NCBI RefSeq assembly: GCF_041248615.1 | Contig: NZ_CP158426.1 | Length of the DNA: 64,000 nt | Origin: Escherichia coli | GTDB lineage: Bacteria; Pseudomonadota; Gammaproteobacteria; Enterobacterales; Enterobacteriaceae | Reading direction: 5' to 3' (one strand) | Part shown: in pieces, positions 23,140-26,876 of the stretch | How the letters are laid out: the number at the start of each line of letters is the position of its first letter | How positions within the stretch are numbered: the first letter of the stretch is position 1 | Made by a program: the position numbers and the translations under genes | Notes under the pieces: generated by a model | Database searches by the model: none | Seen by the model: only the letters and a program-made list of their open reading frames with translations | What the model was told of the DNA's origin: nothing

Positions 23140-23499
23140 TTACTCAGCAACTTCCTGCTTACGGTTACGCATCTTCGCGCCAATCCAGAACACCATAATG
23201 ACGGACAGTACTGCCGGGAAGAAGTTAGAGCCGATATCCGGATATTCCGCACGAACTACCGTGCTGTACAGCAGTACGCCGAGAATAAAACAGGCAGCTG
23301 CCAGACCCGGCAAGCCTACCGGCATAGTGCGATTAAGATAACGTTGATGCAGGCAGTAAACCGTCAGCACCAGGGAAATAATCGGGAATACAGAAAATGG
23401 CACAATGGAGCTAAACAGCGCTGCGAAAGTACCATTAATCGATAAGCCAGCCACCAGCGCCAGCAGCAGCGTACCTCTATCTTGATTTGCTTGTTTCAT
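23140..23499 (-). CDS. yijD: DUF1422 inner-membrane protein YijD
   Basis: 119-aa hydrophobic product [119 protein letters not shown]. Confidence 0.9.
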
Positions 23500-24146
23500 T
23501 ACTCGTCCTTCACATTTCCCGGAATAATTGCGGTTTTCTCTTGTTCACGGCGATACCAGTAATAAGCCCCTTTCGAAATCATTCGCAGTTGCAGTACCAG
23601 TCGCTCTTCTAATTGCCGACGTTGTTCGACGCCGACGTCCAACGCCTCGGCACCCGCACTGAAGACAATCGTCACCATGGCTTCGGCTTGCGCTTCAGTA
23701 AACGCACGCGGCATATGGTTTTCGAGTTCCAGATAGTCCGCAAGTTCCGCAATGAAGTGCTGAATTTCACGCGCAACGGCAGCACGAAACGCAGCGGAGG
23801 TGCCGGAGCGTTCCCGCAATAATAACCGGAAGGCGTTAGGATTATTACCGATGAACTCCATAAATGTGGAGACCGAGGTGCGGATCACACTCCCGCCTTT
23901 GGCGATACGCTGACGCGCCTGGCGCATGAGTTGGCGTAGCATTAAACCGCTCTCATCAACCATGGTCAGACCCAGTTCGTCTACGTCGCGGAAATGCCGA
24001 TAAAAAGAGGTGGGAGCAATGCCCGCTTCACGCGCCACTTCACGCAAACTCAGGCTGGCGAAGCTGCGTTCAGCACTTAATTGGCTAAATGCGGCTTCCA
24101 CCAGCGAACGGCGGGTTTTTTCTTTTTGTTGCGCTCTTACGCCCAT
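23499..24146 (-). CDS. fabR: TetR-family repressor of unsaturated fatty acid biosynthesis FabR
   Basis: Product [65 protein letters not shown]...; track ORF extends to 24242 (in-frame upstream starts exist); start chosen at the internal Met, the alternative 24203/24242 starts cannot be excluded. Confidence 0.85.
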
Positions 24147-24480
24147 CACGATGTCTGAATCCTTGCCAAAAGTACTGCTGGCACTATACCAGAGAATGAA
24201 CATACTGGATTGCTCCAGTGTTGTGAATGAACGGTAACGCAATAAAACATATTTACTGCAATTCTTTGGCCGGTTCTTTTACGTACATCGGAAACCTGCC
24301 GCTTAAACGGAGAGTATCGTCGATAAAAATCCAATAAAACGTTCAGGTCAAAAGTAAGAAACAGACAAAGCAAAGGCCGCTCACGATATAGCCAGATAAA
24401 TGACGGGGATCAATTGGCTTACCCGCGATAAAATGTTACCATTCTGTTGCTTTTATGTATAAGAACAGGTAAGCCCTACC

Positions 24481-25881
24481 ATGCCACATTCCTACGATTA
24501 CGATGTCATAGTAATAGGTTCCGGCCCCGGCGGCGAAGGCGCTGCAATGGGCCTGGTTAAGCAAGGTGCGCGCGTCGCAGTTATCGAGCGTTATCAAAAT
24601 GTTGGCGGCGGTTGCACCCACTGGGGCACCATCCCGTCGAAAGCTCTCCGTCACGCCGTCAGCCGCATTATAGAATTTAATCAAAACCCACTATACAGCG
24701 ACCATTCGCGACTGCTCCGCTCTTCTTTTGCCGATATCCTTAACCATGCCGATAACGTGATTAATCAACAAACGCGCATGCGTCAGGGATTTTACGAACG
24801 TAATCACTGTGAAATATTGCAGGGAAACGCTCGCTTTGTTGACGAACATACGCTGGCGCTGGATTGCCCGGACGGCAGCGTCGAAACACTAACCGCTGAA
24901 AAATTTGTTATTGCCTGCGGCTCTCGTCCATATCATCCAACAGATGTTGATTTCACCCATCCACGCATTTACGACAGCGACTCAATTCTTAGCATGCACC
25001 ACGAACCGCGCCATGTGCTGATTTACGGTGCTGGAGTGATCGGCTGTGAATATGCGTCGATCTTCCGCGGTATGGATGTAAAAGTGGATCTGATCAATAC
25101 CCGCGATCGCCTGCTGGCATTTCTCGATCAAGAGATGTCAGATTCTCTCTCCTATCACTTCTGGAACAGTGGCGTAGTGATTCGTCACAACGAAGAGTAC
25201 GAGAAGATCGAAGGCTGTGACGACGGTGTGATCATGCATCTGAAGTCGGGCAAAAAACTGAAAGCTGACTGTCTGCTCTATGCCAACGGTCGCACGGGTA
25301 ATACCGATTCGCTGGCGTTACAGAACATTGGGCTGGAAACTGACAGTCGTGGACAGCTGAAGGTCAACAGCATGTATCAGACCGCGCAGCCGCACGTTTA
25401 CGCGGTGGGCGACGTGATTGGTTATCCGAGTCTGGCGTCGGCAGCCTATGACCAGGGGCGCATTGCCGCGCAGGCGCTGGTGAAAGGTGAAGCCACCGCA
25501 CATCTGATTGAAGATATCCCTACCGGCATTTACACCATCCCGGAAATCAGCTCTGTGGGCAAAACCGAACAGCAGCTGACCGCGATGAAAGTGCCATATG
25601 AAGTGGGCCGCGCCCAGTTCAAACATCTGGCACGCGCACAAATCGTCGGCATGAACGTGGGCACGCTGAAAATTTTGTTCCATCGGGAAACGAAAGAGAT
25701 TCTGGGTATTCACTGCTTTGGTGAGCGCGCTGCCGAAATTATTCATATCGGTCAGGCGATTATGGAACAGAAAGGTGGCGGCAACACTATTGAGTACTTC
25801 GTCAACACCACCTTTAACTACCCGACGATGGCGGAAGCCTATCGGGTAGCTGCGTTAAACGGTTTAAACCGCCTTTTTTAA
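24481..25881 (+). CDS. sthA: soluble pyridine nucleotide transhydrogenase
   Basis: 466-aa product [60 protein letters not shown]... (FAD-binding GxGxxG, redox-active CxxxxC-like site). Confidence 0.96.
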
Positions 25882-26781
25882 CACTTTATCGAAATGGCCA
25901 TCCATTCTTGCGCGGATGGCCTCTGCCAGCTGCTCATAGCGGCTGCGCAGCGGTGAGCCAGGACGATAAACCAGGCCAATAGTGCGGCGTGGTTCCGGCT
26001 TAATACACGGCAAATAAACAACCCCATCGCGTTTGCGCTCCGGCGGCACAGCCAGTGCAGGCAGTAAAGTGATCCCGCTACCTGCCGCCACCATGTTGCG
26101 CAGAGTTTCCAGGCTGGTCGCGCGGAAGTGTGTATCTTCATCCGCCCCGGCTTCAAAACAGAAACCCATTGCCTGATCGCGCAAACAGTGACCGTCTTCC
26201 AGCATCAGCAGTTTTTCCCCTGCCAGATCGGCCATCGGTACGCATTCGCGGTTCGCCCACGGGTGATCTTCATAGATAGCCAGCAGCATTGGTTCATCAA
26301 ACAATGGCACTTCAATGAATGCTTCGCTCTCTTTCACCAGCGCGAGGATCACGCAGTCAAGTTTGCCACTGTCCAGTTGCGCCAGTAACTGGTGGGTCTG
26401 TGCTTCATGCAGATACATTTCCAGCTTTGGAAAGGTCTGGTGCAGCATCGGGATAATATGCGGTAGCAGGTACGGTCCAACCGTGGGAATCAAACCAATA
26501 TGCAGCGGCCCGGACATCGTCTCGCCCTGCTGGCTTGCCATCTCTTTAAGGACTTTCACCTCACGCAGTACGGTACGCGCCTGATCCACCAGCAGCATTC
26601 CCGCCTGGGTGAACAACACTTTACGGCTGGTCCGCTCCAGCAACATCACGCCCAACTCATCTTCCAGCTTACGAATTTGCCCGCTAAGCGTCGGCTGGCT
26701 AACGTGGCAGGAATCTGCCGCACGCCGAAAATGGCGGTGTTCAGCCAATGCCACCAGGTACTCAAGATCACGAATATTCAT
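25864..26781 (-). CDS. oxyR: LysR-family hydrogen-peroxide-responsive regulator OxyR (305 aa)
   Basis: Product from [70 protein letters not shown]...; track ORF is 10 codons longer; 3' end overlaps sthA 3' end by 18 bp. Confidence 0.95.
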
Positions 26782-26876
26782 TATCCATCCTCCATCGCCA
26801 CGATAGTTCATGGCGATAGGTAGAATAGCAATGAACGATTATCCCTATCAAGCATTCTGACTGATAATTGCTCACA

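Follow-up and report, generated by a model that had tools for sequence, protein, structure and literature searches.

Translation of FabR very probably starts at a pair of adjacent in-frame start codons, GTG 24149 and ATG 24146, which makes the protein 216 or 215 residues long and the open frame upstream of them non-coding. The window analysed here is a stretch of 64,000 nt of Escherichia coli DNA (contig NZ_CP158426.1, assembly GCF_041248615.1), in which fabR lies on the minus strand in a gene setting formed by trmA, yijD, fabR, sthA and oxyR. Its open frame, 23499..24242, codes for 247 residues with a TTG start, and four in-frame start codons precede the conserved FabR protein (Table 1). In the explanation that best accounts for the data, the stretch upstream of the tandem codons would be a 5' UTR with the AAGGA ribosome-binding site, followed further upstream by an extended -10 promoter (TGgTATAGT) and then by the scar of a deleted neighbour gene.

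Table 1. Start codons and other features of the fabR upstream region (window coordinates)
Feature	Position	Strand	Product, source or basis
TTG	24242-24240	minus	247 aa; few GenBank records
ATG	24203-24201	minus	234 aa, MFILW...; K-12 RefSeq, UniProt
GTG	24149-24147	minus	216 aa; PGAP
ATG	24146-24144	minus	215 aa, MGVRAQQ; GenBank U00096.3 (2014), initial annotation
fabR coding sequence, supported extent	23499..24149	minus	GTG 24149 or ATG 24146 to TAA 23501-23499; 216 or 215 aa
Tandem start codons GTG + ATG	24144..24149	minus	invariance and tetracycline ribosome profiling
Ribosome-binding site AAGGA (24164-24160) within GGCAAGGATTCA	24156..24167	minus	conservation and anti-SD duplex
Predicted transcription start, A	24176	minus	7 nt after the -10 hexamer; K-12 U00096.3 4161094, + strand
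Block TCTGGTATAGTGCCAG with extended -10 TGgTATAGT (24191-24183)	24178..24193	minus	conservation
Hairpin ACTGGAgcaaTCCAGT	24204..24219	minus	terminator-like scan; RNAfold -8.0 kcal/mol
TTCACA hexamer	24222..24227	minus	promoter-like match; 33 nt upstream of -10
3'-terminal remnant of citrate-proton symporter gene, stop TAA 24255-24253	24253..24287	minus	identity to O157:H7 (L002) from 24287 downstream

The initial annotation of this DNA had described an open frame extending 32 codons upstream of an MGVRAQQ start, to 24242, with an intermediate in-frame Met, and had chosen the shortest form. Its coordinates are correct: the MGVRAQQ ATG lies exactly 32 codons downstream of TTG 24242, and the intermediate Met corresponds to ATG 24203. 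The frame is indeed open to 24242, but the stop-free stretch is longer, reaching 44 codons upstream, to 24278, up to an in-frame TAA (24281-24279); TTG 24242 is the first start codon after this stop. Likewise, the TTG and the two ATGs listed are real, but the fourth start codon, GTG 24149, had been overlooked. When the 334-nt intergenic region was shuffled 5000 times with its dinucleotides preserved, 10.4% of the shuffles had an in-frame start at least 32 codons upstream and 9.6% had at least 44 open codons. The upstream open extension of fabR is no more than chance gives.

The fabR product has the architecture of the TetR family, a TetR_N helix-turn-helix (Pfam PF00440, residues 54-90 of the 247-residue frame) and a C-terminal ligand domain (TetR_C_46, PF21943, residues 119-218), with TetR_N beginning about 16 residues into the short form of FabR. 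It matches the NCBIfam FabR equivalog NF008402 at 413.6 bits, for a cut-off of 151. The match covers residues 32-237 of the 247-residue frame and profile positions 1-206 of 211, and profile position 1 falls on residue 32, which is the GTG codon. The genetic environment is that of FabR as well, with the divergent sthA upstream and yijD (DUF1422) immediately downstream, followed by trmA; the same context is found in Dickeya, Proteus, Plesiomonas, Tatumella and Musicola. The window gene is FabR (YijC) itself, the repressor of the TetR family that acts on fabA and fabB in E. coli and Salmonella, and only its annotated N-terminus differs.

DesT of Pseudomonas aeruginosa belongs to a separate orthologous group, with other regulatory targets than FabR. 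It is the only relative with a solved structure (PDB 3LSJ, 3LSP, 3LSR) and has the same family of fold; it aligns from its residue 4 over FabR residues 22-217 in the 234-residue numbering (3LSJ, E = 7e-30). The N-terminus of DesT lies 3 residues before the conserved R-A-x-Q-K motif, as in the short form of FabR, and DesT has no counterpart of the FabR upstream extension. In 120 homologues, the conserved core starts at G-V/I-R-A, after a short and variable N-terminus. A 300-residue 'hypothetical protein' of Cichorium endivia (P0010) is 94% identical to E. coli FabR and fused to a yijD-like DUF1422 domain; it almost certainly represents enterobacterial contamination of the plant assembly.

At the other end of the gene, the fabR stop codon and the yijD start codon overlap as TAATG (23497-23501, minus strand), which suggests translational coupling of fabR with yijD, the gene for a DUF1422 membrane protein. 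The adjacency of fabR and yijD is found across Enterobacterales. The overlap is not universal; in Dickeya, Tatumella and Plesiomonas the two genes are about 5-190 nt apart. On the far side of the intergenic region, sthA (plus strand, 24481-25881) and oxyR (minus strand, 25864-26811) have convergent 3' ends that overlap by 18 nt (25864-25881).

The initial annotation held that several in-frame starts allow databases to disagree, and all four forms, of 247, 234, 216 and 215 residues, have in fact been deposited. The K-12 RefSeq record has the 234-residue form (NC_000913.3 4161067-4161771, NP_418398.3; locus L003, 2068-2772), as does the UniProt entry FABR_ECOLI according to its UniRef name. For E. 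coli genomes other than K-12, PGAP places the start at the GTG (WP_001309117.1, 216 residues). GenBank U00096.3 (2014) starts fabR at 4161124, for 215 residues, and the 247-residue form is found in five contigs (e.g. ANK04528.1). The K-12 start has thus flipped from 234 residues (2006) to 215 (U00096.3, 2014) and back to 234 (RefSeq NP_418398.3). The long models of K-12 RefSeq, UniProt and some GenBank records are probably the outcome of a longest-ORF or first-ATG choice. For Musicola paradisiaca (L093, at about 1201), the RefSeq protein P0033 (MMGVRAQQ...) requires ATA as its initiator codon. This case suggests that PGAP sets FabR starts by alignment to the family model, not by local start signals.

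We compared the fabR loci of 80 Enterobacteriaceae species, with position-wise conservation calculated over 76 unique sequences and frames followed in a 26-sequence alignment. The GTG-ATG pair is present in all 80 species, and GTGATGGG is invariant in the 76 unique sequences, including the wobble base of the GTG. Among the 80 species, only Escherichia has ATG 24203, and in E. albertii it is shifted out of the fabR frame by an insertion of 1 nt. In 39 species, among them Salmonella, Klebsiella, Kluyvera, Raoultella and many Citrobacter, the frame is closed by a stop 9-12 codons upstream of MGVRAQQ. A stop also separates TTG 24242 from ATG 24203 in one E. coli lineage (L007), and most other genera have an in-frame stop downstream of the TTG position. 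The upstream translations are unrelated between genera; in the nucleotide alignment, the conserved blocks are split by 1-nt indels, and the same blocks stand in different frames. Conservation of the upstream codons across Enterobacteriaceae had been proposed as a check, and it went against the long forms: in the 80 species these codons are not kept as protein, and no extension with a conserved frame was found for the 234- or the 247-residue FabR. The view that the start is unresolvable from sequence alone therefore fails for these two forms, which the comparison rejects, but it stands for GTG versus ATG. Variation within E. coli is uninformative: all 5425 matching genomes have at least 95% identity over the 156-nt region. 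In E. coli RM13322 (H70, NZ_CP050498.1, about 3172197-3172305), the match to the upstream region breaks off at query position 114 and has no annotated fabR beneath it, so that this strain may have a disrupted or rearranged fabR.

What is conserved upstream of the tandem codons resembles a promoter. The motif TGnTATAnT is present in all 80 loci and TGGTATAGT in 78 of them; the exact 16-nt block TCTGGTATAGTGCCAG occurs in 54, with variation restricted to its last three bases. The TATAGT hexamer is kept in Dickeya, Tatumella, a Pantoea-like symbiont, Musicola and loci L088, L091 and L092, and all of these outgroup loci except L092 also keep the TG dinucleotide. The -10 hexamer is 34 nt away from the ATG in 27 loci, 35 nt in 35 and 36 nt in 17. 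Because this distance does not vary by threes, there is no conserved coding frame between the two. The hexamer found in the sequence at a 17-nt spacing from the -10, AATCCA, is a poor -35 (2/6 matches). A weak -35 is usual in extended -10 promoters, and the fabR element is similar to the extended -10 (TGn) sigma-70 promoters, with a TG one base upstream of a 5/6 -10 hexamer and a poor -35. Based on the position of the conserved extended -10, transcription of fabR is predicted to start at A24176, and the predicted leader would be 27-30 nt long and carry the nearly invariant AAGGATTCA. Text searches of the literature found no described fabR promoter.

The ribosome-binding site lies in this leader. 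Positions -20 to -10 are 91-100% conserved, and AAGGA forms an anti-SD duplex of -5.2 kcal/mol that is common to the GTG and the ATG, in a weakly structured leader. By the Salis definition, the aligned SD spacing calculated from the sequence amounts to 7 nt for the GTG and 10 nt for the ATG.

A second conserved block was observed further upstream, at 24216-24232 on the minus strand; it reads GTAAACAATCATTCACAAAG in most genera and CCGTTCATTCACAACAC in E. coli. The TTCACA hexamer is found upstream of the -10 in 61 of the 80 loci, at a fixed distance of 33 nt in 48 of them, and in the 26-sequence alignment it holds its position while the implied frame differs between genera. It is possibly the -35 of an overlapping second promoter (TTCACA-17-TATGTT), or else a regulator site. 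TTCACA-17-TATGTT is the only consensus promoter match, and ATG 24203 lies inside its -10 hexamer. With respect to the transcription start predicted from the extended -10, this ATG would be at about -27, in the promoter spacer, and with either promoter it would precede the transcript.

Another reading of TCTGGTATAGTGCCAG, with CTGG and CCAG as paired arms (-6.5 kcal/mol), would make it an RNA hairpin or a terminator. The promoter reading is preferable because the hairpin arms are lost in Dickeya, Pantoea, Tatumella and Musicola, whereas TGnTATAGT is kept. A search for RNA families in the intergenic region returned a single match, a chance miRNA hit of 18 bits for a gathering score of 70. The conservation of TCTGGTATAGTGCCAG extends beyond the needs of a -10 element, and the block forms an imperfect palindrome, CTGGTAT-A-GTGCCAG. 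Its left arm, CTGGTA, has some resemblance to a FadR operator half-site; the right arm would be 2 nt too distant for a FadR-type site and is lost outside Enterobacteriaceae. The fabR -10 may overlap a repressor site. The core operator of FabR itself is ACAnnTGT, according to the Salmonella FabR regulon paper, which contains nothing on the fabR start or on autoregulation. Autoregulation through the conserved block was discarded as an explanation, as ACAnnTGT is absent from the sequence upstream of fabR.

The part of the upstream region that is farthest from fabR belongs to another gene. The symporter remnant is read in a different frame from fabR, and an intact symporter frame of 452-459 codons ends at this very site in E. 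whittamii, E. albertii and other Escherichia. In O157:H7 (L002, 1219-2535), the symporter gene and an M20 aminoacylase gene are intact between sthA and fabR, and the symporter is also annotated between these two genes in UTI89. The window strain, like K-12, has lost this island and keeps its scar, which is a presence/absence polymorphism within E. coli.

Start-site data are available from tetracycline ribosome profiling (TetRP; Nakahigashi et al. 2016, PMC4909307), in which fabR is row 58 of Table S2. In three samples, the depth is 47.9/32.7/43.2 at +57 nt, which corresponds to ATG 24146, compared with 0/0/0 at the start of the 234-residue form. The second candidate is at +54 nt, the GTG, and TTG 24242 is not among the candidates for fabR (PMC4909307). 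The authors state that adjacent codons are inseparable by their method; the fabR row is marked 'not tested' by manual inspection, and the profiling was done under limited growth conditions (PMC4909307). Ribosome profiling had been suggested as a check by the initial annotation, and these published data answer it in part: they give no signal at the 234-residue start and a signal at ATG 24146, but they do not separate the GTG from the ATG. Together with the comparative data, they bear out the choice of a short form as essentially right. The same study lists the fabR start of 2006 as displaced by +57 nt in the 2014 record, with confirmation from TetRP, as for 62 other genes (PMC4909307). Unlike most of these re-annotated K-12 starts, fabR has the long form again in RefSeq and has an adjacent second start codon. 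The fabR start problem, already treated in published work on the re-annotation of K-12, is thus an ordinary and largely solved one. The supplements of the TetRP study (PMC4909307) and of the TRAINSPOTTER N-terminomics study contain no N-terminal FabR peptide, and a Ribo-RET preprint does not mention fabR. The missing peptide evidence is plausibly explained by the size of the tryptic N-terminal peptides, GVR and MMGVR, which are too short for routine mass spectrometry.

The short form has to be weighed against the fact that NP_418398.3 and FABR_ECOLI still describe a protein of 234 residues. A FabR truly made from ATG 24203 under some conditions or from longer transcripts, with an Escherichia-specific hydrophobic extension, is very improbable in our view, even though it is the current reference annotation in K-12 RefSeq and UniProt. 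Its 19 additional codons are unchanged in five of six Escherichia loci, E. albertii being the exception. Nevertheless, the promoter, UTR and SD that overlap these codons account for this identity, as their nucleotides are conserved from genus to genus whatever the frame; the ATG itself is not found outside Escherichia and is shifted out of frame in E. albertii. A GGAG (24216-24213) located 9 nt before ATG 24203 can form an anti-SD duplex of -5.6 kcal/mol, but it is sequestered in the ACTGGAgcaaTCCAGT hairpin, which ends directly before the AUG. In strains that have the upstream, co-directional symporter gene, a read-through mRNA would include ATG 24203; both this ATG and TTG 24242 lie upstream of the predicted transcription start and would therefore not be on the normal fabR mRNA. 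The absence of TetRP signal in all three samples (PMC4909307) also counts against the 234-residue form, and no homologue or family model examined has an equivalent extension.

That the 247-residue form is the true product is extremely unlikely. No other start codon of the open frame precedes the TTG, and proteins starting there have been deposited in five contigs. TTG is a weak initiator, and this one has no SD, its best anti-SD duplex being +0.4 kcal/mol. It is located 10 nt past the stop codon of the intact or remnant symporter gene, the frame is interrupted by the stop in E. coli L007, and the region is not homologous outside Escherichia. The lack of a TetRP candidate (PMC4909307) points the same way. 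Initiation at the GTG-ATG pair is thus strongly preferred to both long forms.

Which codon of the pair is used is a finer question, as the two in-frame start codons are located behind one ribosome-binding site, the arrangement that a dual start would require. We give about an even chance to ATG 24146 being the main start. The GTG being the main start is unlikely by our estimate, and substantial use of both codons is somewhat less probable still. ATG is intrinsically a stronger initiator than GTG. A rough sum in the style of an RBS calculator puts the two codons within a factor of about 1.5 of each other, which is inside the model error. By the methionine aminopeptidase rule, the initiator Met stays on when another Met follows it. 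Initiation at the GTG would therefore yield a protein beginning with MMGV..., and initiation at the ATG, followed by Met removal, a protein beginning with GV.... Taken together, the possibilities that the GTG-ATG pair is a maintained dual start yielding two proteoforms, MMGV... and GV..., or that the GTG is the real start, are regarded as less likely than not.

The case for GTG 24149 as sole or main start, with the ATG as codon 2 of a 216-residue protein as annotated by PGAP, can be argued on several grounds. The GTG is invariant, with its wobble base, in the 76 sequences, whereas the four-fold degenerate sites at +5, +8 and +14 vary in 20-51% and the spacer positions -9 to -7 in 26-41%. However, positions -6 to -4 are also 86-100% conserved, so that the invariance of the GTG may reflect a constraint on the start context. 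The spacing of 7 nt to the GTG is nearer to the optimum of 5 nt than the 10 nt of the ATG, and the NCBIfam profile begins at the GTG. The pair reads ATG-ATG in Tatumella and GTG-ATA in the AT-rich locus L092, where a start codon is kept at the GTG position although the ATG is lost. Conversely, the ATG alone suffices in the Pantoea-like symbiont, Plesiomonas and L091, in which the preceding codon is not a start codon or is itself preceded by a stop. The preference of PGAP for the GTG looks model-driven, because an ATA is called as the start in Musicola. In the TetRP data the GTG is the second candidate, and the ATG is the primary call (PMC4909307). In view of this balance, the GTG as sole or main start is doubtful, and we retain the pair as the site of initiation.

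If the GTG were the real start, the K-12 reference model (234 residues) and the EcoGene/2014 GenBank model (215 residues) would both be wrong. The choice between GTG and ATG concerns one or two N-terminal residues before the DNA-binding domain, and a change of function is unlikely. The consequences of the long model are more tangible. Most likely, the first 19 residues of the 234-residue entries are a promoter and a 5' UTR read as protein. Cloning, N-terminal tagging, modelling or targeted proteomics based on these entries would bring in a non-native hydrophobic extension, and N-terminal tags or deletions planned on the long model would destroy the fabR promoter and ribosome-binding site. If the short form is the true one, biochemistry with any 234-residue construct would have been performed on a FabR carrying a hydrophobic, non-native 19-residue tag.
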